Assembly (NCBI GenBank): GCA_966243015.1
Contig: CBIMES010000002.1
Span: forward strand, 117,458 to 181,457
Direction: 5' to 3'
Source: an uncultured bacterium
GTDB lineage: Bacteria > Patescibacteriota > Minisyncoccia > Phycocordibacterales > UBA6065
Length of the DNA stretch: 64,000 nt
Shown here: positions 2,472-57,781 of the stretch, piece by piece
How positions within the stretch are numbered: position 1 is the first letter of the stretch
Layout: every line of letters starts with the position of its first letter
The notes under the pieces: model-generated
Told to the model about the DNA's origin: nothing
Databases searched by the model: none
Seen by the model: the letters and a program-made list of their open reading frames with translations, nothing else
Program-made: the position numbers and the translations under genes

Positions 2472-2479
2472 GTAACGAT

Positions 2480-2508
2480 ATCCGCCTTCAAAAGGCGGAT
2501 TCGTTTTT
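2480..2508 (+). terminator. Rho-independent terminator after rpsO
   Basis: Hairpin ATCCGCC-ttcaaaa-GGCGGAT followed by TCGTTTTT. Confidence 0.7.
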
Positions 2509-2637
2509 GATAACCTTCGCGATACAATGGCGCGAGAGCCCGTGACGGTTTTCGGCCGAGAGCAAACACTCGCGGGCGGCATGGCATTTATTTCACACGT
2601 TTAGACGGTATTTTTATAATCTAGTACTTTATATTTT

Positions 2638-12245: not shown

Positions 12246-13205
12246 ATGTTTCGAAAGACACTCTCTTTTCTTGGCACGAAGATAGGACTCTCACTTATCG
12301 CGGCACTCGTGATAGTCGTCGCAGCATTCGCCTTCAAAGACATCAATATTTTCAGCGGAGCGTCTAAGAATTCAGCAGCCCTTGTCGCGGAAAAGAGCGC
12401 GACCGAGCAGGTCTTCGAGAAAGACACTGATGGCGACGGGCTCAAAGACTGGGAAGAGGCGCTCTACGGATTCGACATCAACAATCCAGACACCAAAGGG
12501 AATGGCGCGGGTGATCTCAAAGAGATCGAGAAACTCAAAACCGAATCGGCGGAAACCTCTGAGACAGGTGAGACAAGCTCATCTACGCCGACGGCCACCG
12601 ACAGATTCTCGAGGGAGCTTTTCATACGCTACGTCGAGGCGAAGCAGGCAGGTAAGGATATTACGCCCGAGTTGAGCAAAATAATAGCAGACGAGGTCCT
12701 CGCAAAGAGCTACGAGTCGGAGACTCCGGCCTTTGACGATAGTGTCCTCGTCACCGTGTCCACGAACGACACCTCTTTTATAAAGAACTACGGAAACGCG
12801 CTCGGAGCCATCGTGTCAGTGCCGCTTCCCGAAGAGACACCCAACGAGCTCTTCATCCTCGAAGAGATAACGGCCCGAGAGTCGACGACCAAGACCAACA
12901 GGGAAGACCTGGCAAAGCTGCTTGCTCGATACACCAAGATGCGAGACTCCGTAGTTGCGCTCAAGGTGCCGCTCGCGGCCAAAGCCGCCCACGCCCAACT
13001 CGCGCAGGGAATCGAGCTCATGATGGGTGTGGTGATCGGCGTTCAGAACCTCGAGACCGACCCTATCAGCTCACTGCCACGAATCTCCCAATATGAGGAC
13101 GGCGTCGACCTGCTCAGCGCCGGAACCCTGAGACTTCAGCAGTACTTCCTGAAAAGCGGTGTCAGCTTCTCCTCGCGCGACGCGGGTTACATCTTCATGC
13201 AATAA
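12246..13205 (+). CDS. Hypothetical N-terminally membrane-anchored protein, first gene of the T4SS-like locus
   Basis: TM helix LSLIAALVIVVAAFAF, then an acidic region with a DTDGDGLKD-like motif and Ser/Thr-rich linker. No family assignment. Confidence 0.45.
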   Translation: MFRKTLSFLGTKIGLSLIAALVIVVAAFAFKDINIFSGASKNSAALVAEKSATEQVFEKDTDGDGLKDWEEALYGFDINNPDTKGNGAGDLKEIEKLKTESAETSETGETSSSTPTATDRFSRELFIRYVEAKQAGKDITPELSKIIADEVLAKSYESETPAFDDSVLVTVSTNDTSFIKNYGNALGAIVSVPLPEETPNELFILEEITARESTTKTNREDLAKLLARYTKMRDSVVALKVPLAAKAAHAQLAQGIELMMGVVIGVQNLETDPISSLPRISQYEDGVDLLSAGTLRLQQYFLKSGVSFSSRDAGYIFMQ

Positions 13206-34333: not shown

Positions 34334-34861
34334 CTATTCGACGTTGGTGAAGACCTCCTGCACCTCCTCGTTCTCCTCGAGGGCGTCTACAAGCTTTCCG
34401 AGGGCCTCGAGATCCTCGTCAGAGAGGTCGACCGTCGTGTTTGGCTTCCAGCCGGCACCCTCGCGGGTGAAGGCCCATGATGCTGATCCCGGCGCGGCAA
34501 GCGACGATCCGTTCTCGGAGAGGATGTGCTTCACCTCCTGGGCGGCCTTGTTCTTGCTCGCGGTGAGCGCCTCAATAATGAGGGCGCATCCGCCCGGCCC
34601 ATATGCCTCGTAGGTGATGGACTCGAGCGCCGCGCCCGGTTCCGACGCCTTCTTGATGGCTCGGTCGATGACTTCGTTCGTGACGTCCTCGGACTTCGCT
34701 CGCTCGATAAGCGCTCGCAGCGAAGGGGAGTTTCGGTCACCCTTCACCTTCTGCGCCTCAGCGGAGATGAGCTTCGAGTATTTCGAATAGAGCTTAGACT
34801 TAGCCCCGTCAGTCTTTGCCTTCTTGTGCTTGATCTGTGACCATTTATTGTGTCCGGACAT
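34334..34861 (-). CDS. yebC: YebC/PmpR-family DNA-binding regulator (compact form, about 70 aa shorter than E. coli YebC)
   Basis: MSGHNKWSQIKHKKAKTDGAKSK… N-terminus, …YEAYGPGGCALIIE…, and the C-terminal …EVQEVFTNVE motif. It sits in the conserved ruvC neighbourhood. Confidence 0.8.
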   Translation of the reverse strand: MSGHNKWSQIKHKKAKTDGAKSKLYSKYSKLISAEAQKVKGDRNSPSLRALIERAKSEDVTNEVIDRAIKKASEPGAALESITYEAYGPGGCALIIEALTASKNKAAQEVKHILSENGSSLAAPGSASWAFTREGAGWKPNTTVDLSDEDLEALGKLVDALEENEEVQEVFTNVE

Positions 34862-34951: not shown

Positions 34952-35983
34952 TTACTCTTTCTTGATTTTAAGATGCGTCCAGGCCTTCTCGGTCGCCTTG
35001 CGGCCTCGGGGCGTTCGCTCGATGAGGCCGAGCTGAAGGAGGTACGGCTCGTGAACTTCCTCGACGGTGGCATCCTCCTCGGCGAGCGATGCCGCGAGGG
35101 TGTTAAGGCCGACGGGGCCGCCGTTGAACTTGTCGATGAGGGTCTTGAGAAGCTCGCGGTCGCTCTGCGAGAGGCCGAGCTCGTCGATGCCGAGCATGGA
35201 AAGGGCCCGATTGACGATGTCGGGGGAGACGGGGGTCTTCTCGACCTGGGCGAGGTCGCGCACGCGCTTGAGGAGGAAGTTCGCCGTTCGCGGGGTAAAG
35301 CGGCTGCGCTCGGCGATCTTCTGGGACGAGGCGCTGTCTATGTCGATTCCGAGAACGCGGGCCGATCGGTGGATGATGTCCTGTATCTCCTTGTCCGTAT
35401 AGAATTCGAGCCTGAAGGTTCCGCCGCTGAAGCGAGATCGGAGCGGCGCGGAGAGAAGGGCGATACGCGTCGTTGCCGCGATGAGGGTGAACGGGGGGAG
35501 TTCGAGCTGAATCGTGCGTGCGCTTGGTCCCTTGCCGATGATGATGTCGAGCGAGCCTGACTCCATGGCAGGGTAGAGGACTTCCTCAATCGCCTTGTTC
35601 AGTCGATGGATCTCGTCGATGAAGAGCATGTCTCCCGGCGCGAGGTTGGTGAGGATTGACGCGAGGTCCCCGACCTTCTCGATTGCGGGACCGGAGGTTG
35701 TCTTTATCTGCGACGCGGTCTCCTTCGCGATAAGGTGGGCCAAAGTCGTCTTTCCGAGACCTGGCGGTCCGTAAAAGAGGATGTGCTCGGGCGGGTGCTT
35801 TCGCTCCGCGGCCGCTTTGAGCAGGACCTTGAGGTTCTCCTTTATGGATTTCTGGCCAATGTATTCGTCCCACGAAGAGGGGCGCAGCGTTTGATCCAGG
35901 AAAAGGTCATCATTTCCAAAAGAGCCCTTATTTTCAGGCTTTTTATGGGTTTCCGAATCTGGGCGGGCGGGAGTACTTGACAT
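34952..35983 (-). CDS. ruvB: Holliday junction branch-migration ATPase RuvB
   Basis: Walker A (FYGPPGLGKTTLAHLIA), Walker B (MLFIDEIHRL), sensor 2, and a C-terminal winged-helix domain. 343 aa. Confidence 0.95.
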   Translation of the reverse strand: MSSTPARPDSETHKKPENKGSFGNDDLFLDQTLRPSSWDEYIGQKSIKENLKVLLKAAAERKHPPEHILFYGPPGLGKTTLAHLIAKETASQIKTTSGPAIEKVGDLASILTNLAPGDMLFIDEIHRLNKAIEEVLYPAMESGSLDIIIGKGPSARTIQLELPPFTLIAATTRIALLSAPLRSRFSGGTFRLEFYTDKEIQDIIHRSARVLGIDIDSASSQKIAERSRFTPRTANFLLKRVRDLAQVEKTPVSPDIVNRALSMLGIDELGLSQSDRELLKTLIDKFNGGPVGLNTLAASLAEEDATVEEVHEPYLLQLGLIERTPRGRKATEKAWTHLKIKKE

Positions 35984-36005
35984 ATGTAAAGCTTTATGCT
36001 AAGAT
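35977..36005 (+). promoter_or_regulatory. Sigma70-type promoter (TTGACA-17-TAAGAT) driving a plus-strand non-coding transcript
   Basis: TTGACA at 35977-35982, a 17-nt spacer, and TAAGAT at 36000-36005. It overlaps the ruvB start codon on the other strand. Confidence 0.55.
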
Positions 36006-36011
36006 ACAAGA

Positions 36012-36238
36012 GTAGTCAGGTTGAAACGGCGGTACTCCAGAATATAAATCTCTAAGCAATTAAACCTTTACGGTTTACTAGTTGATATTCTCGGGACGTT
36101 CTGGTTTGCACTTCGGTGCACTTACTGGGGCTATCCTAAGAACTCTGCTTAACTTTAGATGCACATCTTTAAGTATTGCTTAGAGATTTATGTTCTCGAG
36201 CGAGAGGCTCGCTTCCGAAAGGGGCGAGCTTTTCTTTC
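36012..36238 (+). ncRNA. Candidate small structured RNA of about 225 nt with a promoter and an intrinsic terminator. Class unknown, 6S-like architecture possible.
   Basis: There is no ORF of at least 60 aa on the plus strand here. A perfect UUCG hairpin (GCAC-UUCG-GUGC) lies at about 36127-36138. A 15-bp perfect long-range inverted repeat (AAATCTCTAAGCAAT at 36044-36058, ATTGCTTAGAGATTT at 36176-36190) encloses about 117 nt. A terminal GC-rich hairpin with a GAAA loop is followed by TTTTCTTT at 36204-36238. Confidence 0.4.
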
Positions 36239-36322
36239 CCTATGGTACTACTCCTATTACTCCCCGCAACTACGTTTTAGCAGGGGAGCACAGAGGTAAT
36301 TTTAAGTAAATCTTGACGGAAT

Positions 36323-38008
36323 TTAGACGATTTCCGAGATGTCGATGACGCGCTCGAGCTCGTCGAGCGAAGTGATGCCTTTGAGCACCTTCACGATGCC
36401 GTCCTCGCGCATGTCGGGGATCCCCTGGATGCGCGTCGCGGCCTTGATGTCGCGCTCGCTTGGGTTCTTCTCGACTGCGGATTCGAGGGTTTCGTCCGTT
36501 GCCACGGCCTCGTATATGCCGATTCGCCCCTTGTATCCGCTCTGGTTGCACGCTTCGCAGCCTGCGGCGGCCCACATCTTTTCGGTCTGGAGCCCCACTA
36601 CGGAATTTTTGTCCTGGACGCCTGAGACGATCTCGTCGACGCGTCGCTTCGTCTCGCCTTCGAGAATTACTTCCGTCTTGCAGACGGCGCAGAGCTTTCT
36701 CACCAGTCGCTGGGCGAGCACGATGTTAATCGCCGAGGTCATGGTCTTTGAGTTTACGCCGAGATCGATGAGGCGAGGGTATGCACCCGCCGCCGAGTTG
36801 GTGTGGAGGGTGGAGAAGACGAGGTGTCCCGTCTCCGCGGAGTCGACGGCGATCTTCGCGGTTTCCTCGTCTCGGATCTCTCCCACCATGATCACGTCTG
36901 GGTCTTGTCTGAGCGCCGAGCGGAGACCGAGCCCGAAGGTGTAGTTCTTGTCGGGGTTGACCTGCGTCTGTACGATGCCGGGGAGGTGGTACTCGATAGG
37001 GTCCTCGATGGTAATGATTTTAACTCCCGGGCTGTGAATCTTGCGGAGGAAGGCGTACAGGGTCGTGGTCTTTCCAGATCCCGTCGGACCGGTGGTGAGA
37101 ATCATGCCGTTTGGTCGCGCAATCTCCTTGAGGAGGATGCCAAGGAGCTTCTCGGGAATGCCGAGGTTCTCGAGGGGCACCTGAATCGAGCGGGGATTGA
37201 GGATTCGGAGCACAATGGACTCATTGTACGCGCCAGGCAAGACCGAGGTTCGGATCTCGATATCGTCCTCGCCGACCTTCACGCTGAAGCGGCCGTCCTG
37301 GGCCTCGCTCTTCACGTTGAGCTTGAGTCCCGAGAGCAGCTTGATGCGCGAGAGAAGGAGAAGGAATGTCTCGGTGTCGAAGCTGAGTATGTCTGTGAGC
37401 ACGCCGTCGAGTCGATAGCGGAGCCGCACATACGCTTCTTCCGGCTCGACGTGGATGTCTGACGCTTTGGTCGCGAGCGCTCCCGAGAGCACGATCTCGA
37501 GGATCTTCGAGATGCGGAAGCCCTTTTTGAGTTTGAGGACCTCGGCCATCGAGGCCTTCACGTCATCGATGCCTTTAATCTGGCCGAGGTAGTTTTTGAT
37601 GTCCTCGCTCGAGATGTCGAGAGCGCCCGCCTTGGTCTCCGTCGAGAAGGAGAGGTCAGCGTAGCGGCTCCAGACCTTTTCGAGGCTCGAGAGCGAGGCG
37701 ACAGCCACGGTCACCTCGTATCCCTTGTTCGTGACCGTGTCGAGGATGGCGAGGGTCTTGTCGCTGACGGGGGAGAGGACGGCGATCTTCACGCGCTTGC
37801 CGACGAGGCTGAACGGCGCGATCTTCGTGTCGCGGGCCTCCGCCTCGGTGACGACGCGGAGGGCGTCCATGTTAATAGGCACCGGACCGAGGTCCGCGTA
37901 CTCGAGGCCGTGTCGCGAGGCGATGATCTGGGCGAGATCCTCTTCCTCGCGCTTTCTGAATTCCTCGAGCTTTTTACCCTGCTTTTCCTCGTCAAATGAG
38001 AGTGACAT
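36323..38008 (-). CDS. pilB: Type IV pilus / type II secretion assembly ATPase (PilB/GspE family)
   Basis: N-terminal GSPII-like domain, Walker A (LTTGPTGSGKTTTL), Asp/His boxes, and a tetra-Cys motif (CAVC…CEAC). 561 aa. Confidence 0.9.
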   Translation of the reverse strand: MSLSFDEEKQGKKLEEFRKREEEDLAQIIASRHGLEYADLGPVPINMDALRVVTEAEARDTKIAPFSLVGKRVKIAVLSPVSDKTLAILDTVTNKGYEVTVAVASLSSLEKVWSRYADLSFSTETKAGALDISSEDIKNYLGQIKGIDDVKASMAEVLKLKKGFRISKILEIVLSGALATKASDIHVEPEEAYVRLRYRLDGVLTDILSFDTETFLLLLSRIKLLSGLKLNVKSEAQDGRFSVKVGEDDIEIRTSVLPGAYNESIVLRILNPRSIQVPLENLGIPEKLLGILLKEIARPNGMILTTGPTGSGKTTTLYAFLRKIHSPGVKIITIEDPIEYHLPGIVQTQVNPDKNYTFGLGLRSALRQDPDVIMVGEIRDEETAKIAVDSAETGHLVFSTLHTNSAAGAYPRLIDLGVNSKTMTSAINIVLAQRLVRKLCAVCKTEVILEGETKRRVDEIVSGVQDKNSVVGLQTEKMWAAAGCEACNQSGYKGRIGIYEAVATDETLESAVEKNPSERDIKAATRIQGIPDMREDGIVKVLKGITSLDELERVIDISEIV

Positions 38009-38130
38009 GGCCTTTATTGTAGCGCTTTAAGGCCGTTTTTCTTCTATTGACAAATCGGTATTATTTGATATAATATACACAGAACAACATGGCATGGTGC
38101 CGTGATACAGAAACTCTGGATTTTCTACCG

Positions 38131-42814: not shown

Positions 42815-42887
42815 CCGCCCATAGCTCAGTCGGTAGAGCAGCTCCCTTTTAAGGAGAGGGTCGTTGGTTCGATTCCAACTGGGCGGA
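42815..42887 (+). tRNA. tRNA-Lys (anticodon TTT)
   Basis: Cloverleaf: acceptor CCGCCCA/TGGGCGG, D-arm GCTC-AGTCGGTA-GAGC, anticodon loop CTTTTAA, T-arm GTTGG-TTCGATT-CCAAC, discriminator A. An upstream TGGTATTAT extended -10-like element is present. Confidence 0.9.
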
Positions 42888-48846: not shown

Positions 48847-48921
48847 GCTCTCGTCGTTCAATGGATAGGATTCAACTTTGCGGAAGTTGCGATGTAGGTT
48901 CGATTCCTACCGAGAGCACCA
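48847..48921 (+). tRNA. tRNA-Arg with apparent anticodon GCG (unusual; CCA encoded)
   Basis: Acceptor GCTCTCG/CGAGAGC, D-arm GTTC-AATGGATA-GGAT, anticodon stem CAACT/AGTTG with loop TTGCGGA, T-arm GTAGG-TTCGATT-CCTAC, then ACCA. Confidence 0.7.
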
Positions 48922-48926
48922 TACGA

Positions 48927-48952
48927 AAAGCGCCCCTTAGGGCGCTTTTCGT
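48927..48952. terminator. Bidirectional terminator
   Basis: AAAGCGCCC-ctta-GGGCGCTTT-TCGTTT. Confidence 0.75.
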
Positions 48953-49411
48953 TTAGAGACCGAGTCTGTCCAGAATAACCTGGAAGGGGCTTTCCTCGTA
49001 GGGTTCCGCCTTGAGCTTTGTATCGAGAAATTCTCCGAGCTCCTTTATGTCATCGTGCTCTACCGCGATGATGATGTAGGGCATGATCATCTTCTGGGAC
49101 ACGAGAATGAGTCGGGCTCCTTCACGGTGCTCCTCGTCAATCCAGAATGACTTGAGTGTCTTGAAAGGGTAGAGAACGTTGCCGACGCGCACGCCTTTTT
49201 CGCCGATGTCGACGTTTACAATGTTCGGCTTGCGCGCGGCGAAGAGCGCGATGACGAACGCTCCGATGACGATGACGATGGCGAAGAGGACGTTGCCGAA
49301 AATGATCGACGTGATTGCTGCCGCGACCGCAACGATGCCGAGCACCCAGAACCAGTCCTGGGTCTTCTCCCTGTGGGCGTATTCGTGAGTGTGCCAAGAA
49401 AACTCTTTCAT
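48953..49411 (-). CDS. Hypothetical small membrane protein (2 TM)
   Basis: WFWVLGIVAVAAAITSIIFGNVLFAIVIVIGAFVIALFAA forms a hydrophobic hairpin, with a soluble C-terminal domain. 152 aa. Confidence 0.5.
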   Translation of the reverse strand: MKEFSWHTHEYAHREKTQDWFWVLGIVAVAAAITSIIFGNVLFAIVIVIGAFVIALFAARKPNIVNVDIGEKGVRVGNVLYPFKTLKSFWIDEEHREGARLILVSQKMIMPYIIIAVEHDDIKELGEFLDTKLKAEPYEESPFQVILDRLGL

Positions 49412-49478
49412 TGCCTCAGTATAGCACCGATGCCTCGCGGCTTGCTATTATTCGATTTCACTATATATTTGTAGGCAC

Positions 49479-49565
49479 GGAGGAGTGCCTGAGTGGTTTA
49501 AAGGAACAGTCTTGAAAACTGTCGTATCCGAAAGGGTACCGTGAGTTCGAATCTCACCTCCTCCG
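49479..49565 (+). tRNA. tRNA-Ser (anticodon TGA), class II with a long variable arm
   Basis: Acceptor GGAGGAG/CTCCTCC, anticodon loop CTTGAAA, variable arm CGTATCCGAAAGGGTACC, T-arm GTGAG-TTCGAAT-CTCAC, discriminator G. Confidence 0.9.
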
Positions 49566-49623
49566 CAGCCAAGAATCCGCCCGCAAGGGCGCGATTTCAT
49601 TTCGGTCATCCTGTTTTAATCCT

Positions 49624-50331
49624 ATGGAACGCATCGATCGCATACTCTCAAATCTCGGATACTGCACGCGCAAGGAAGCTCGTGACATTCTTCGCGCGGG
49701 TGTCGTCACGGTGAACGGGGAAGAGGTCTCGGACCCGGGGGCGCGCGTCCGCGCCGCCGACGTTCTCTTTGACGGCGAGCCACTTGATCACGCAGACGGC
49801 ATCCTCATCGCCTTCAACAAGCCTATCGGCGTTGTCTGCTCAAAGAGCGCGAACGAGGGCCCGACTGTCTACGAGTATCTGCCAGAGCAGTGGCTTCGAA
49901 GGAATCCCGAAGTGTCGACCGTTGGTCGCCTCGACAAGGATACGAGCGGTCTTGTACTTATCACTGATCAGGGCGTTCTCTCGCACAGGCTGGCGTCACC
50001 CAAGACGCACGTGCCGAAGGTCTATCGCGTTTACGTCGATCGCGATCTCTCGCCGGAACTCGTGGGCCTGTTCGCCGCGGGCAATCTCTTGCTTGAGGGG
50101 GAGGGGGAGCCGTGCGCTCCCGCGGAGCTCAAAATCGTCGGCCCGAGGGAGGCAGAGCTCACTCTCTACGAGGGACGTAACCGCCAGATTCGTCGCATGT
50201 TCGCGAGTCAGGGATACATGGTGACGTCGCTTCGTCGCGAGAAGATCGGCGGGCTTGAGCTCGGTGACCTCGAGGAGGGGAAGTGGCTTGAGCTGCCCCT
50301 CGACCTTTTCGGCGCTTTCCAGTCAAAGTAA
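49624..50331 (+). CDS. rsuA: 16S rRNA pseudouridine synthase (RsuA family; S4 domain + PseudoU_synth_2)
   Basis: N-terminal S4 domain (MERIDRILSNLGYCTRKEARDIL…). Catalytic …VGRLDKDTSGLVLIT…. …NRQIRRMF…. Confidence 0.85.
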   Translation: MERIDRILSNLGYCTRKEARDILRAGVVTVNGEEVSDPGARVRAADVLFDGEPLDHADGILIAFNKPIGVVCSKSANEGPTVYEYLPEQWLRRNPEVSTVGRLDKDTSGLVLITDQGVLSHRLASPKTHVPKVYRVYVDRDLSPELVGLFAAGNLLLEGEGEPCAPAELKIVGPREAELTLYEGRNRQIRRMFASQGYMVTSLRREKIGGLELGDLEEGKWLELPLDLFGAFQSK

Positions 50332-50349
50332 CGGTGTTATCATAAAAGT

Positions 50350-50739
50350 ATGACCACATACCGCCTCATGGCCCTCGACTATGGCACCAAGCGCATCGGC
50401 GTGGCGCTTTCCGACGATCAGGGCATGATGGCCTTTCCGCACTCTGTCATTCATCGAACCAAAGAGTATGTGGCCGAGATCGCAAGGCTCGCCCGTGAGA
50501 ACGGGGTGACAACCATCGTGATGGGGGACTCGAAAGACTATGCCGGCGTTCGTAATCCAATCATGAAGGAGGCGCTGGAGTGCGTCGACGCGCTCAGGGC
50601 CCTCGGCTTTGAGGTTGTGCTTGAGCCGGAAATACTCTCGTCCCACCAGGCGTCTCACTTTCAGGGCAAGACCGACATGACTGACGCGGCGGCGGCGAGC
50701 ATCATTTTGCAGAGCTATATCGACAGAAAAAAGAACTAA
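50350..50739 (+). CDS. ruvX: Putative pre-16S rRNA nuclease YqgF/RuvX
   Basis: LMALDYGTKRIGVALSDD… RNase H-like N-terminus. 129 aa. Confidence 0.85.
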   Translation: MTTYRLMALDYGTKRIGVALSDDQGMMAFPHSVIHRTKEYVAEIARLARENGVTTIVMGDSKDYAGVRNPIMKEALECVDALRALGFEVVLEPEILSSHQASHFQGKTDMTDAAAASIILQSYIDRKKN

Positions 50740-50754
50740 CATACAACCAATCAT

Positions 50755-51159
50755 ATGATTACCTACGACGATTTTTCGAAGGTTGAGATAAAGGTGGGAA
50801 AGATCCTCTCCGCGGAGAAGGTGCCTGAGACCGACAAACTTCTCAAGCTGTCGGTCGATTTCGGCATTGTCGCAGCCGCCCCCGTTGCTACCGTTCAGGT
50901 GGAAGGGGAGCCCGTCGCCCACATCGAGATGCAGGAGCTCAAGAAGGACGTCCGTCAGATTGTTTCGGGCATCTCTGCGTTTTTTCCAGATCCGCAGACG
51001 CTTGTCGGCAGGAAGTGCATGTTCGTGACAAATCTCGAGCCTCGCAAGATCAAGGGTCTTGAGTCGAACGGCATGCTCTTCGCCGTCTCGACCCCTGAGG
51101 GCAAGTTCTCTCTTCTCGAGCCGCATTCTGAAATTCCTGAGGGCACTCGAGCGTACTAG
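50755..51159 (+). CDS. csaA: tRNA-binding protein (CsaA/Myf/EMAP-like OB-fold domain)
   Basis: …FSKVEIKVGKILSAEKVPETDKLLKLSVDFG… …RKIKGLESNGMLFAVS… matches the MetG C-terminal-like tRNA-binding domain. Confidence 0.75.
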   Translation: MITYDDFSKVEIKVGKILSAEKVPETDKLLKLSVDFGIVAAAPVATVQVEGEPVAHIEMQELKKDVRQIVSGISAFFPDPQTLVGRKCMFVTNLEPRKIKGLESNGMLFAVSTPEGKFSLLEPHSEIPEGTRAY

Positions 51160-51163
51160 TTAC

Positions 51164-51802
51164 ATGCCTGAATTCCTTGATCCTAAATTTCTCATACAGA
51201 CCGTAGGGCTCATCGGCGTCATCTCCATTGTGTTCGCGGAGTCTGGTCTCTTCTTCGGATTCTTCCTGCCGGGCGACTCTCTGCTCTTCACCGCGGGACT
51301 GTTTGCGTCACAGGGGTACTTCAATATCGTCTGGCTCACCATCGGGACTATCGTCGCCGCGATTCTCGGAGACAGTGTTGGTTACGCGTTTGGCCGCAGG
51401 GTAGGGCCGGCGCTTTTTTCAAAGGAGGACTCGTTCTTCTTCCACAAGAAGCACATCGACCGCGCGAGCGCTTTCTATGCCAAGTACGGCGTGAAGACCA
51501 TCATGCTCGCGCGTTTCGTGCCAATCGTGAGGACCTTTGCCCCTATCGTCGCGGGCATCGGTCAGATGAGCTATCGCACGTTCCTCACCTATAACGTTAT
51601 CGGAGGAATCGTCTGGGCGGGTTCGATGACGCTTGGCGGGTACTTCCTCGGCGAGCTCATCCCGAACTCCGAGAAGTATCTCCACTACATCATCGCCGGC
51701 ATCATCATCGTCTCCTTCATTCCTATCATCATCGAATGGCTCAAGGCTCGAAAGGAGAGGAAGAGCGCGGCGGAGAAGGTGAGTGACGGCGGACTGCTTT
51801 AG
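51164..51802 (+). CDS. dedA: DedA-family (VTT/SNARE-associated) membrane protein
   Basis: …GLFFGFFLPGDSLLFTAGLFA… …ARFVPIVRTFAPIVAGIGQM… is the DedA signature. Start chosen at MPEFLDP. The track ORF is extended to 51059 and overlaps csaA. Confidence 0.8.
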   Translation: MPEFLDPKFLIQTVGLIGVISIVFAESGLFFGFFLPGDSLLFTAGLFASQGYFNIVWLTIGTIVAAILGDSVGYAFGRRVGPALFSKEDSFFFHKKHIDRASAFYAKYGVKTIMLARFVPIVRTFAPIVAGIGQMSYRTFLTYNVIGGIVWAGSMTLGGYFLGELIPNSEKYLHYIIAGIIIVSFIPIIIEWLKARKERKSAAEKVSDGGLL

Positions 51803-51841
51803 AATCGGTCCCTACGGGACCAGTACGGGTTTTTCTTTTTG

Positions 51842-51913
51842 TGCCCTCGGTAGGAATCGAACCTACATAACCGGCTTAGAAGTCCGGTGTTCTATCCATT
51901 GAACTACAAGGGC
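51842..51913 (-). tRNA. tRNA-Arg (anticodon TCT)
   Basis: Reverse complement: GCCCTTG-TA-GTTC-AATGGATA-GAAC-A-CCGGA-CTTCTAA-GCCGG-TTAT-GTAGG-TTCGATT-CCTAC-CGAGGGC-A. One A:G mismatch sits at the base of the anticodon stem. Confidence 0.8.
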
Positions 51914-51959
51914 AACGGGCACTGAAGAGAATAGCAGGAAAGGGGACGAGAGAGAAGTT

Positions 51960-52036
51960 TGGTGCGCCCTGAGGGATTCGAACCCCCGACCCCCTGTGTG
52001 TAAAACAGGTGCTCTAACCAACTGAGCTAAGAGCGC
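51960..52036 (-). tRNA. tRNA-Val (anticodon TAC), CCA encoded
   Basis: Reverse complement: GCGCTCT-TA-GCTC-AGTTGGTTA-GAGC-A-CCTGT-TTTACAC-ACAGG-GGGTC-GGGGG-TTCGAAT-CCCTC-AGGGCGC-A-CCA. A TTGAAA-17-TATTGT promoter-like element lies upstream on the minus strand at about 52060-52095. Confidence 0.9.
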
Positions 52037-52197
52037 TTCGTCTGGCCTCGCGGCTGACTGCGAGGATAACAATAGCCCATGTCGGCCCTTTTTTCAAGGA
52101 AAACCGGTGATTTCCGCCGTATTCTTGCTAATTTCAGGCTCGCATGTTAGATTAACTGCCACGTTAGCAACGTTTACAAATTATCAAAAATCCCCGG

Positions 52198-52632
52198 ATG
52201 GAAAGCAAAGTAACTATTTCTCCAGTCGACATGAACGCTCGCAAGGCTCTCGAGCTGCGATCGGGCGACACCGTGCGCGTATGGCAGAAGATCAAGGAGG
52301 GTGACAAGACCCGACTTCAGGCCTTCGAGGGCCTTATCCTCGCCCGAAAGCACGGCGACGAGGCCGGCGCGACGTTCACCGTCCGCAAGACTATCGACGG
52401 AGTCGGCGTAGAGAGGATCTTCCCGCTCTACTCGCCGGTCATCGACGAGATCGAGATCATCCGACGATCTAAGGTCCGACGCGCGAAGCTCTACTTCGTG
52501 CGCGAGAAGGCGGCAAAGGAGATCCGACGCCAGATGCGAAACCTCCGAAAGGAGAAGGGCGGAAACACCGACGTGGTGAAGAGCCCAAAGGCTGCCAAGG
52601 CAGAGGCTCCGGCAGAGGAGGCAAAGGCCTAA
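52198..52632 (+). CDS. rplS: 50S ribosomal protein L19
   Basis: …[31 protein letters not shown]… is the L19 signature. A Lys/Ala-rich C-terminal tail. An alternative start at MNARKAL (52231) is possible. Confidence 0.85.
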
Positions 52633-52643
52633 AACTCTCACGA

Positions 52644-52676
52644 AAAAACTCCGCGAAAGCGGGGTTTTTCTTTTGC
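52644..52676 (+). terminator. Rho-independent terminator after rplS
   Basis: AAAACTCCGC-gaaa-GCGGGGTTTT-TCTTTTG. Confidence 0.8.
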
Positions 52677-52785
52677 CTCTATCGAGAATCGCGCGAAATA
52701 GTTGAAAAGTAGGGCGTCTTTATGCATAATAGGCAGACTCAGGTTGGGAAGGGCCTCGGGCACGCCGAACCAGAGATCGAAATAT

Positions 52786-52872
52786 GCGCGGATGGCGAAA
52801 TTGGCAGACGCACTACCTTGAGGTGGTAGCGCCCTCACGGGCATGGAGGTTCAAGTCCTCTTCCGCGCACCA
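52786..52872 (+). tRNA. tRNA-Leu (anticodon GAG), class II, CCA encoded
   Basis: Acceptor GCGCGGA/TCCGCGC, anticodon stem CTACC/GGTAG with loop TTGAGGT, long variable arm, T-arm GGAGG-TTCAAGT-CCTCT, ACCA. Confidence 0.9.
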
Positions 52873-52922
52873 GGAGAACGACGGACGGATGATCCGTCCG
52901 TCGTTTTTCTAAAGAAAAAGAT

Positions 52923-52994
52923 GGTGCCTATAGTTTAGTGGTAAAACGCTGGATTGTGGTCCCGGTGTCGAGGGTTCGATTCCCTCTAGGCACC
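52923..52994 (+). tRNA. tRNA-His (anticodon GTG) with encoded G-1 pairing with C73
   Basis: G-GTGCCTA…anticodon loop TTGTGGT…T-arm GAGGG-TTCGATT-CCCTC, then TAGGCAC-C. The 8-bp acceptor with G-1:C73 is the bacterial tRNA-His hallmark. Confidence 0.85.
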
Positions 52995-56803: not shown

Positions 56804-57781
56804 ATGAAGCATGTGACTCTCTCTCATATCTTTGCCGCCGCACTTCTCTCGGCGTCCTTCGTCGCGCCCTCCGTTTCTTTTGCGGCCGCATCTTGCACAA
56901 AGTTAACCGCTGATATCGGTACGGGCTCGAGCGACTCGTACGGCTCCCAGAACGTCATCGCGCTTCAGCGATTCCTTGTCTCGGCGGGATACATGGCTGC
57001 GACGCCTAATGGTTATTTTGGCCCGGCGACTACGATGGGCGTGAAGATGTTCCAGGCGGCGCGGGGCATCTCTGCTACGGGCTTCGTTGGACCCCTTACC
57101 CGCGCCGCCATCGAGACGGCGAGCTGCTCTGGTTCGACGGCAAGCCCTTCGGCGCGATCAGATTCTTCGTCGCAGGCGCCCGTTCTCAAGAATCCCTCGT
57201 CGACCCTCTTTAGCGCGCCGAAGGCGGGCGAGGCTCTCGCGATTGGCTCAACTTACAAAATCTCCTGGAATGCTCCGTCGAGCGGGGCGTATAGTCTCGT
57301 TCTCGATAACGCGACCAGTACGGCGAGGGGAGTGATAGAGTACTACTCTCCCGATTCCGGCAAGAAGACTTGGGACGTCGGCGCGGTTACGGTTGGCTCT
57401 GAGAAGGAGTTTATCGAGCCGGGTATGTACCGTCTCCGTCTCCAGGACAGGACCCAGGGACCCACCGCGTCTGACCAGGTGAGCAACTGGTTCGAGATTA
57501 CCGCGCCCGCGGCATCTATCAAGACCATGCTTCCCTCGGTTGCCGTCGCGGATGGCAAGACCGCGGTCGTCATGTACGGGTCGGGCTTTACGCAGGGGAC
57601 CTCTCTCTATGTGTATGATTCGTACAAGAAATGGATGAACGTGCTCTTCACCTCGGCCGATGCCACGGTCATGGTATTCTCGGTGCCGACCGAGATCAGC
57701 GCGGGGACGTATGACCTCATCATCACCGACAAGTACGGCGCGATCTCGACGGGACCTCGGGTCACTATAAGGAAGCCATAA
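56804..57781 (+). CDS. Secreted protein with an N-terminal peptidoglycan-binding (PG_binding_1-like) domain and C-terminal Ig-like domains
   Basis: Signal peptide MKHVTLSHIFAAALLSASFVAPSVSFAAAS. …VIALQRFLVSAGYMAATPNGYFGPATTMGVKMFQAARGISATGFVGPLTRAAI matches the PG-binding repeat pattern. A Ser-rich linker precedes beta-rich C-terminal domains. Confidence 0.6.
   Translation: MKHVTLSHIFAAALLSASFVAPSVSFAAASCTKLTADIGTGSSDSYGSQNVIALQRFLVSAGYMAATPNGYFGPATTMGVKMFQAARGISATGFVGPLTRAAIETASCSGSTASPSARSDSSSQAPVLKNPSSTLFSAPKAGEALAIGSTYKISWNAPSSGAYSLVLDNATSTARGVIEYYSPDSGKKTWDVGAVTVGSEKEFIEPGMYRLRLQDRTQGPTASDQVSNWFEITAPAASIKTMLPSVAVADGKTAVVMYGSGFTQGTSLYVYDSYKKWMNVLFTSADATVMVFSVPTEISAGTYDLIITDKYGAISTGPRVTIRKP

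Follow-up and report, generated by a model that had tools for sequence, protein, structure and literature searches.

The stretch of DNA analysed here (the window, 64,000 nt of contig CBIMES010000002.1 from an uncultured bacterium of the Patescibacteriota) carries at positions 35977-36237 of its plus strand, between ruvB and a gene of the PilB family, what is almost certainly a real, stand-alone gene whose product is a structured non-coding RNA about 225 nt long. We consider it very probable that this RNA constitutes a new family. Its newness lies at the level of the family; by type, it belongs with the stand-alone structured RNAs of bacteria. The RNA is present as a single copy in every related genome of Paceibacteria type (Candidate Phyla Radiation, CPR) that was sampled, and it appears to be universal in one major class. 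An earlier note made from the letters of the window had proposed a structured small RNA, transcribed as a unit from promoter to terminator; this proposal is strongly supported by conservation, covariation, strand-specific G·U pairs and a promoter and terminator kept in about 200 loci. As to its role, the reading that we prefer, and that we hold to have as much chance of being right as of being wrong, is that it would be a trans-acting, protein-binding RNA coupled to ruvB at the level of the promoter.

Comparison of the window with RuvB loci by blastn showed that what is kept ahead of ruvB, on the other strand, is exactly the domain 36035-36200 closed by an inverted repeat, and this conservation was seen in most of the best 80 RuvB loci. 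These best 80 loci, taken from species-representative genomes and comprising the closest relatives only, form the genome set; their genomes are labelled as Paceibacterota, Parcubacteria, Taylorbacteria, Kaiserbacteria, Campbellbacteria, Minisyncoccia or Patescibacteria, with some automated 'Saccharibacteria' labels. By these names, the window belongs to a CPR bacterium of Paceibacteria type. A covariance model (R1; 169 positions and 62 pairs) was built from 38 sequences and the minimum-free-energy structure of the window. It found a single match per locus in 80/80 genome loci (79 complete, the one in L055 being cut at a contig end), and conservation in relatives, whose absence the earlier note had named as refuting its reading, is observed. 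All matches lie on the strand opposite ruvB and score 78-168 bits, the reverse strand giving 29-60 bits; for the core in the window itself, the scores are 167.8 bits on the plus strand and 56.3 bits on the minus strand. A context-free pattern scan of metagenome contigs, which defines our metagenome set, matched at least 120 loci. Among the 120 listed, R1 gave 116 strong matches and one weak match (L097), and the pattern matches in L105, L129 and L203, which have no match to the model, were discarded as chance. The same scan of viral contigs gave no match. The exact RuvB protein of the window is present on 11 metagenomic contigs, and a RuvB protein search directed toward more distant CPR classes returned only relatives that are at least 71% identical.

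At every locus having flanking DNA, RuvB is encoded head-to-head with the RNA, and the other neighbour is a PilB-family gene in most loci, not all. The RuvB proteins of the genomes that contain the RNA are 61-91% identical. The weak match (L097, 6439-6607) is a divergent member of 41.6 bits, located about 400 nt from a ruvB whose product is 67% identical; there, a PilB-like gene comes next on the same strand, with a terminator and a promoter of its own in between, and this is the sole different layout seen. In L048, a degenerate rod-like element (2475-2634, minus strand; 33 bits) lies directly downstream of the genuine RNA and has its own perfect closing repeat of 27 bp with a different sequence; it may be a diverged tandem duplicate. 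Many assemblies with the locus (L009, L011, L014, L015 and others) are automatically labelled 'uncultured Candidatus Saccharibacteria', and near-identical RuvB proteins are named otherwise.

The features of the RNA gene in the window are as follows:

35977..35982, plus strand: -35 hexamer TTGACA of the RNA promoter (promoter scan; 78/79 genome loci)
35997..36005, plus strand: extended -10 element TG-C-TAAGAT (promoter scan and pattern count in the genome loci)
36011..36033, plus strand: predicted transcription start (about 36011-36013) and variable leader (placed from the position of the -10)
36034..36201, plus strand: conserved structured core of 168 nt (R1 match, covariation statistics)
36035..36060, plus strand: 5' arm of the closing helix P1, with the inner 15 nt AAAUCUCUAAGCAAU nearly invariant (repeat search, alignment)
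36061..36077, plus strand: accessory hairpin P2, variable and covarying, absent in L033 and L026 (alignment, folds of relatives)
36080..36149, plus strand: long arm P3 (covariation, G·U counts)
36093-36097 / 36134-36137, plus strand: GGGAC/UCCU helix of P3 with a bulged C (alignment)
Within P3, plus strand: helix GUUCUGGU/ACUGGGGC with the conserved tandem wobble U36102·G36127 and G36103·U36126 (alignment)
36108-36119, plus strand: apical hairpin of P3, GCAC-UUCG-GUGC, variable across homologues
36149-36156, plus strand: conserved junction UUAACUUU on the 5' side of P6 (alignment)
36152..36174, plus strand: accessory hairpin P6, reduced or absent in L033 and L026 (covariation)
36175..36200, plus strand: 3' arm of P1 (AUUGCUUAGAGAUUU...), with two-sided changes in 21/25 pairs
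36207..36237, plus strand: intrinsic terminator, a 9-bp G+C-rich stem GCUCGCUUC-CGAAA-GGGGCGAGC followed by UUUUCUUU (minimum-free-energy fold)

The RNA promoter has the sigma-70-type consensus with an extended -10: TTGACA is separated by 17 nt from TAAGAT (36000-36005), TG stands just 5' of the -10, and the score is 10/12. It is the sole promoter-like site that the promoter scan found on either strand of 35700-36600, where 0.6 would be expected, which confirms the near-consensus promoter described in the earlier note. The gap of 339 nt that separates ruvB (34952-35983, minus strand; 459 bits against the RuvB equivalog) from the gene of the PilB/GspE-family ATPase (36323-38008, minus strand; 454 bits, under the PilB equivalog cutoff) contains no plus-strand open reading frame (ORF) of more than 46 aa, as had been said of it. 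The predicted transcript (36012-36240, 229 nt) folds at -86.1 kcal/mol (z = -5.6), and none of 200 shuffled sequences folds equally well (0/200). Its minimum-free-energy fold contains both the UUCG-capped hairpin and the terminator hairpin that had been recognised by eye, the latter having been missed in the window by a simple terminator scan. The inverted repeat, previously given as 15 bp, is real and longer than stated: its arms (36035-36060 and 36175-36200) are 26 nt long and 92% complementary, and the 26-mer is unique within the 64 kb (0 further matches expected). Another suggestion was an alternative pairing with the 5' arm of the terminator; the hairpin concerned, CGAGC-GAGAG-GCUCG, does occur in the window (36197-36211), but the switch is not conserved, the flanking terminator sequences being different in relatives.

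The helices are strongly supported by covariation, one of the checks that had been proposed. In the alignment of the genome set (80 sequences), 86.7% of cells are paired, as against 36-52% when the partners are slid by 1-3 columns; two-sided changes are found in 50 of the 62 pairs, and the observed values are attained by 0/500 shuffles. The metagenome set replicates these results (86.1% paired, 45/62 pairs with two-sided changes, 0/500 shuffles). These counts come from alignments fitted to the R1 model, and an independent MAFFT/RNAalifold run gave compensatory changes in 27 of 40 predicted pairs. Moreover, G·U pairs greatly outnumber A·C combinations (425:60 in P3 and 70:4 in P2), and we therefore conclude that the structure is selected on the plus strand of the window.

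This strand preference bears on two other explanations of the conserved region. The first is a structured, cis-regulatory 5' leader of the ruvB mRNA, made from the minus strand. Such a leader would lie directly upstream of ruvB, as the region does in every locus, and the opposite strand also folds significantly (z = -4.9). This explanation is nevertheless largely refuted, and we regard it as very improbable: the plus strand has two- to threefold higher scores with the covariance model, G·U pairs far exceed A·C, the tandem U·G/G·U would become a tandem C·A/A·C mismatch on the minus strand, and the consensus promoter and the terminator are both directed along the plus strand. The second is an element acting at the DNA level, that is a miniature inverted-repeat transposon, a pair of protein-binding sites or a strand-specific hairpin of single-stranded DNA. 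A long inverted repeat, a conserved sequence and a G+C content below that of the flanks (0.39 in the RNA region versus about 0.6) would suit it, and G·T wobbles are tolerated in single-stranded DNA too. However, the element has one copy per genome at a constant site, P2, P3 and P6 covary with many pair types, the promoter and the terminator flank it in the orientation of the G·U strand, and it is absent from viral contigs. We accordingly give a DNA-level element next to no credence, and the idea of an element resembling a pair of terminal inverted repeats, raised in the earlier note, fails on the single copy per genome, the covarying helices and the excess of G·U over A·C. A miniature inverted-repeat transposon in particular was rejected (single copy in the window, one per locus, fixed site, no viral matches).

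Considering the alignment and the folds together, the RNA consists of a closing helix, a long arm and two accessory hairpins. P1 comprises 25 bp, of which the outer 10 covary freely whereas the inner 15 (AAAUCUCUAAGCAAU / AUUGCUUAGAGAUUU) are almost invariant. In P3 there are an invariant GGA/UCC helix, where a C and a UA are bulged, and an 8-bp helix with the tandem U·G/G·U; the model pairs 72:123, 73:122 and 82:112 are invariant, and the two wobbles are kept as U·G in 72/79 and as G·U in 73/79 sequences. In most lineages P2 and P6 complete a four-way junction. L033 and L026 (Campbellbacteria) lack P2 and most of P6 and fold as clean rods (z = -12 and -13) in which the 5' side of the junction is reduced to 1-2 nt and its 3' side measures 8-15 nt. 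From this loss it follows that the essential core is P1 plus P3 and that the four-way junction is optional. A candidate 11-nt tetraloop receptor (CCUAAG) was not retained, being found only in the close relatives of the window and with an unfit partner strand.

The signals for transcription are also kept in homologues. TTGACA, a spacer of 16-17 nt and TG(C/A)TAnnnT precede the core in 78/79 genome loci, and a stricter pattern (TTGACA-17-TGnTAnnnT) is found in 163 of 175 loci overall (93%); in L020, L015 and L031 this promoter was also called, independently, by the promoter scan. The distance from the -10 to the core, that is the leader, varies from 11 to 121 nt, a variation which suggests that the ends may be trimmed to the P1-closed core. 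Downstream of the core, terminators were found in 125/177 homologues (85 with a hairpin and a T-run, 40 with a T-run right after P1), and those of L020 and L015 were called by the scan. On the plus strand no gene follows the RNA, the next gene being on the opposite strand. A riboswitch or same-strand 5' leader was rejected since what comes after the RNA is a terminator and then the 3' end of a gene on the other strand; the sole locus with a downstream gene in the same orientation is the weak, divergent L097, where the terminator and promoter already mentioned lie in between.

Two further observations concern the leader. TTGAAA (36022-36027) is kept in the leaders of close relatives, 6-9 nt 5' of the core, and together with TATAAA in the 5' arm of P1 it makes a second, weak promoter-like pair (TTGAAA-15/18-TATAAA); it could alternatively be a processing site. 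In 32 loci (L021/22, L024, L028, L030, L034, L037, L038, L042, L058, L061, L079, L082 and L084 among them) an early hairpin with a U-run comes right after the start, e.g. AGAGCCUGAACAAGGGGCUUUUUAUUUU, and resembles a promoter-proximal attenuator.

The RNA was compared with the 4,227 families of Rfam release 15. At gathering thresholds, no family matches the RNA in a scan of the window; with E-values up to 10, the 601-nt locus gave nothing but the terminator part of Thr_leader (23 bits, cutoff 55), and no consistent match was obtained with 20 diverse homologous loci. In the literature we found no earlier description of the RNA. The Rfam scan agrees with the earlier failure to recognise by eye the RNA of the signal recognition particle (SRP), transfer-messenger RNA (tmRNA) or RNase P RNA. 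SRP RNA was rejected on the apical loop, which is variable and not a conserved GNRA, as well as on the lack of a model match; RNase P RNA, tmRNA and the other described families were rejected because none of the Rfam models matches.

The likeness to 6S RNA deserves a longer examination. Canonical 6S RNAs have a closing stem, a large 5' central bulge with the start of the product RNA, a hairpin opposite to it and an apical stem, and those known from other clades show a conserved product-RNA template sequence and strong synteny (PMC8414754). The RNA described here resembles them by its length (about 170-230 nt), by ends that form a long closing stem, by an apical stem with conserved small internal loops, and by being single-copy, clade-wide, strongly promoted and in strong local synteny (PMC8414754); the rod of an outer stem (P1) and an apical stem (P3) is supported by both folding and covariation. 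A divergent 6S-type RNA, which would bind the sigma-70 holoenzyme as a mimic of an open promoter and template product RNAs, could be imagined on these grounds: size, stems, copy number, distribution and promoter would all suit a housekeeping regulator, and the junction UUAACUUU holds a TAnnnT-like string. We consider it distinctly improbable. There is no Rfam 6S match at E-values up to 10, either with the 601-nt locus or with the 20 homologues; instead of a large two-sided central bubble, the would-be bubble is filled by two covarying hairpins, its 5' side consisting of P2 and 2-4 nt; the 1-2 nt of L033 and L026 leave no single-stranded template; P1 is nearly perfect and conserved in sequence, without the small bulges and loops of the canonical 6S closing stem (PMC8414754); and the GG hallmark of product RNAs is missing from the predicted template. 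With the rod present and the 5' bulge absent, membership in the 6S family fails and a 6S-like mechanism is unlikely; the resemblance pointed out in the earlier note goes no further than the closing stem. A hairpin in the style of product-RNA refolding (CUUUAAG-UAUUG-CUUAGAG) occurs in the window and was rejected, since by eye it is not conserved in distant relatives.

Other structured RNAs offer partial likenesses. Bacterial Y RNAs (Yrn1/YrlA, the partners of Ro/Rsr proteins) have a long stem formed by their ends, which includes a conserved protein-binding segment, and above it a one-sided loop and further stem-loops. Our RNA is similar in its end-formed long stem with a sequence-conserved segment and in the loop and stem-loops above; it differs by the lack of an Rfam match, of a TROVE/Rsr gene among its neighbours and of a tRNA-like T-loop. 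Retron msr-msd regions likewise have inverted repeats that close a domain, in which a small hairpin on the 5' side is accompanied by a long, irregular one. Retrons, though, are sporadic defence elements, whereas no reverse transcriptase is found near the RNA and the RNA occurs in 80/80 related genomes at one fixed site. Neighbours and distribution thus exclude both a retron RNA and a Y RNA.

We propose that the variable leader and trailer would be trimmed back to the P1-closed core, and that this core would be a stable, abundant RNA acting in trans through its folded shape. P1 stacks on P3 to give a rod, and it is probably by the P3 module and the invariant duplex of P1 that the core would bind some conserved protein or enzyme. 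The primary sequence is conserved more tightly than the upkeep of helices or cis-antisense pairing would need, and the invariant duplex and loop/wobble blocks, found in genomes whose RuvB proteins are only 61-91% identical, argue that the RNA most likely works in trans; that it does so on a protein partner is, in our judgment, an even chance. A more specific version, which we put forward tentatively and rate somewhat lower, would make the RNA a component or regulator of a clade-wide ribonucleoprotein of Paceibacteria, of a housekeeping type and with the standing of 6S or Y RNAs; recognition would then take place through the invariant duplex and the tandem-wobble module. A search of the window for complements of the invariant blocks, as possible trans targets, gave nothing above chance. 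A function tied to recombination or DNA uptake, for example the four-way junction as a decoy for junction proteins of the RuvABC type, has hardly any likelihood, and the lineages without P2 and P6 argue against it.

Concerning the relation to ruvB, three features on the opposite strand have to be considered:

35981..35983, minus strand: ATG start codon of ruvB, the complement of CAT in TTGACAT (ORF call)
35996..36001, minus strand: TAGCAT, a -10-like hexamer on the ruvB strand and candidate weak arm of a bidirectional promoter
36242..36269, minus strand: putative weak promoter-like element TTGCGG-16-TACCAT just past the RNA terminator

The genes around the RNA encode TsaE, a hypothetical protein, the PilB-family ATPase, RuvB, YebC, RuvC and a tRNA synthetase. 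The start codon of ruvB overlaps the -35 of the RNA promoter (TTGACAT / ATGTCAA), a fact that the earlier note did not remark, and at least 67 of 79 genome loci (at least 85%) share it. The ATG at the -35 is usually the only in-frame start, and the overlap fixes the first codons of RuvB as Met-Ser. TAGCAT is the complement of ATGCTA and forms with TAAGAT a symmetric 10-mer, ATGCTAAGAT, which presents TAnnnT on both strands; the -10 region therefore reads AnnnTAnnnT, and the predicted divergent starts, near 36012 and 35989, are 23 bp apart. The TAnnnT on the ruvB strand ends 11-12 nt 5' of the ATG in 117/151 loci. Such a short distance has parallels in the window, where a Shine-Dalgarno-like motif precedes just 5 of the 45 longest ORFs and many ORFs (e.g. 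38047-38091, 1176-2102, 12246-13205 and 56804-57781) have an extended -10 (TGnTAnnnT) ending 6-10 nt before the ATG; very short leaders, in leaderless or short-leader mRNAs, thus seem to be usual.

Bidirectional promoters with a shared -10 and starts 18, 10 or 23 bp apart are common, and the strongly active arm of such a promoter can repress the other through competition for polymerase (PMC12825309). We suggest that the RNA and ruvB may be the strong and weak arms of a single bidirectional promoter, with starts about 23 bp apart, and that RNA polymerase engaged on the strong arm would limit transcription of ruvB-yebC-ruvC. Such coupling at the promoter, to which the arrangement of the motifs points, seems to us somewhat more probable than its absence. 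A bidirectional promoter would explain the fixed -35/ATG overlap, would explain without any functional link why the genes are never separated, and would supply ruvB with a promoter. The resemblance to the described cases (Warman et al.; PMC12825309) lies in TAnnnT on both strands of ATGCTAAGAT and in the predicted start spacing of about 23 bp; the differences are that the product of one arm here is a structured RNA, made from a promoter with a perfect -35 and an extended -10, that the other arm has no -35, and that the strong arm has its -35 within the coding start of the weak-arm gene.

Beyond the RNA, about 40 nt past the core, the ruvB strand recurrently shows TTGCnn-16-TA[GC]TAT, which reaches 8/12 or more in 57% of loci and in 31% of shuffles; a standard promoter scan called it neither in the window nor in relatives. 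This distal element could be an alternative, weak source of ruvB transcripts, which would then begin with some 250 nt of leader, antisense to the RNA. Whichever start ruvB uses, the strong RNA promoter should, judging from the layout, antagonise its transcription. In the stretch from the RNA terminator to where the PilB-family gene ends (36242-36300, and its equivalent in the close relatives L006-L020) we also observed the conserved blocks CATACTACTCC, GCAATAGC and TTTTTCAAGAGAACAC, the first two of which, on the ruvB strand, form the weak promoter-like element as TTGCnn-16-TAGTAT. In other clades the block is AAATTCAATTGACA, within a hairpin that resembles a terminator of the PilB gene. A small ORF that begins past the terminator, at GGAG-N4-ATG on the ruvB strand, was discarded: by eye it is not conserved, and the window has no ATG there.

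If the distal promoter, or read-through from the PilB-family gene, did produce such a leader of about 250 nt, the RNA could be a cis-encoded antisense RNA of ruvB, repressing it by convergent transcriptional interference and by duplex formation with cleavage by RNase III. There is no room for a separate ruvB promoter between the ATG and the RNA promoter, the distal motif recurs as described, linkage to ruvB is 100% wherever flanks are available, and the opposite strand folds well. Like cis-encoded antisense RNAs of the CopA and RNAI type, moreover, this small structured RNA stands opposite and beside a possible target at a fixed location. We nevertheless judge antisense control, both as a relation to ruvB and as this means of repression, to be unlikely. 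Antisense pairing needs no set sequence, yet the RNA has invariant blocks, conserved far beyond what complementarity needs, in genomes whose RuvB proteins are 61-91% identical; the distal promoter is weak and uncalled by the standard scan; an AUG after a leader of 250 nt would be atypical of a genome with mostly short leaders and no Shine-Dalgarno; and the 5' end of the RNA would pair no nearer than about 28 nt to the ruvB AUG. The overlap with a ruvB transcript is itself only putative, depending on where ruvB starts, for which the proximal shared -10 and the weak distal promoter are both possible.

Several points weigh against a trans-acting RNA that shares a bidirectional promoter with ruvB. 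The transcription of the RNA, its ends and its abundance are read from sequence signals only. By the criteria used, a terminator is absent at about 30% of loci, and 32 loci have a terminator-like hairpin between the promoter and the core. A nearly perfect duplex of 25 bp is normally a substrate of RNase III, so the mature form could differ from the model. On the side of ruvB, TRTGn is the known extended -10 consensus and includes the A that makes the -10 symmetric, and TAGCAT may be a by-product of this motif; it has no -35 partner and stands 12 nt from the ATG, slightly farther than in other genes. Finally, the absolute linkage to ruvB could reflect a direct functional tie instead.

CPR/Patescibacteria represent a large share of bacterial diversity, and to our knowledge almost nothing is known of their RNA biology. 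A 2026 review of the Patescibacteria phylum makes no mention of non-coding RNAs. The family described here is easily recognised, with about 200 examples and strong covariation, and its model can improve the annotation of thousands of metagenome-assembled genomes. Parts of the RNA are better conserved than RuvB, and such constraint usually marks work with core cellular machinery. The locus also offers a clean natural example of a promoter -35 that doubles as the start of a divergent gene, a layout in which the RuvB-YebC-RuvC recombination operon would have its expression coupled to a very strong RNA promoter, in organisms whose messages are largely of the leaderless type.

Two minor observations concern other genes of the window. 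The YebC/PmpR-family gene between ruvB and ruvC (34334-34861, minus strand) encodes only 175 aa; its product covers the first 135-140 of about 240 profile positions with a score below the cutoff, and the same 175-aa product is called on metagenomic contigs. Across the 64 kb, neither rRNA, tmRNA, RNase P RNA, SRP RNA nor 6S RNA was found, and six tRNA genes lie on both strands within about 4 kb (48847-52994), with a seventh at 42815-42887.

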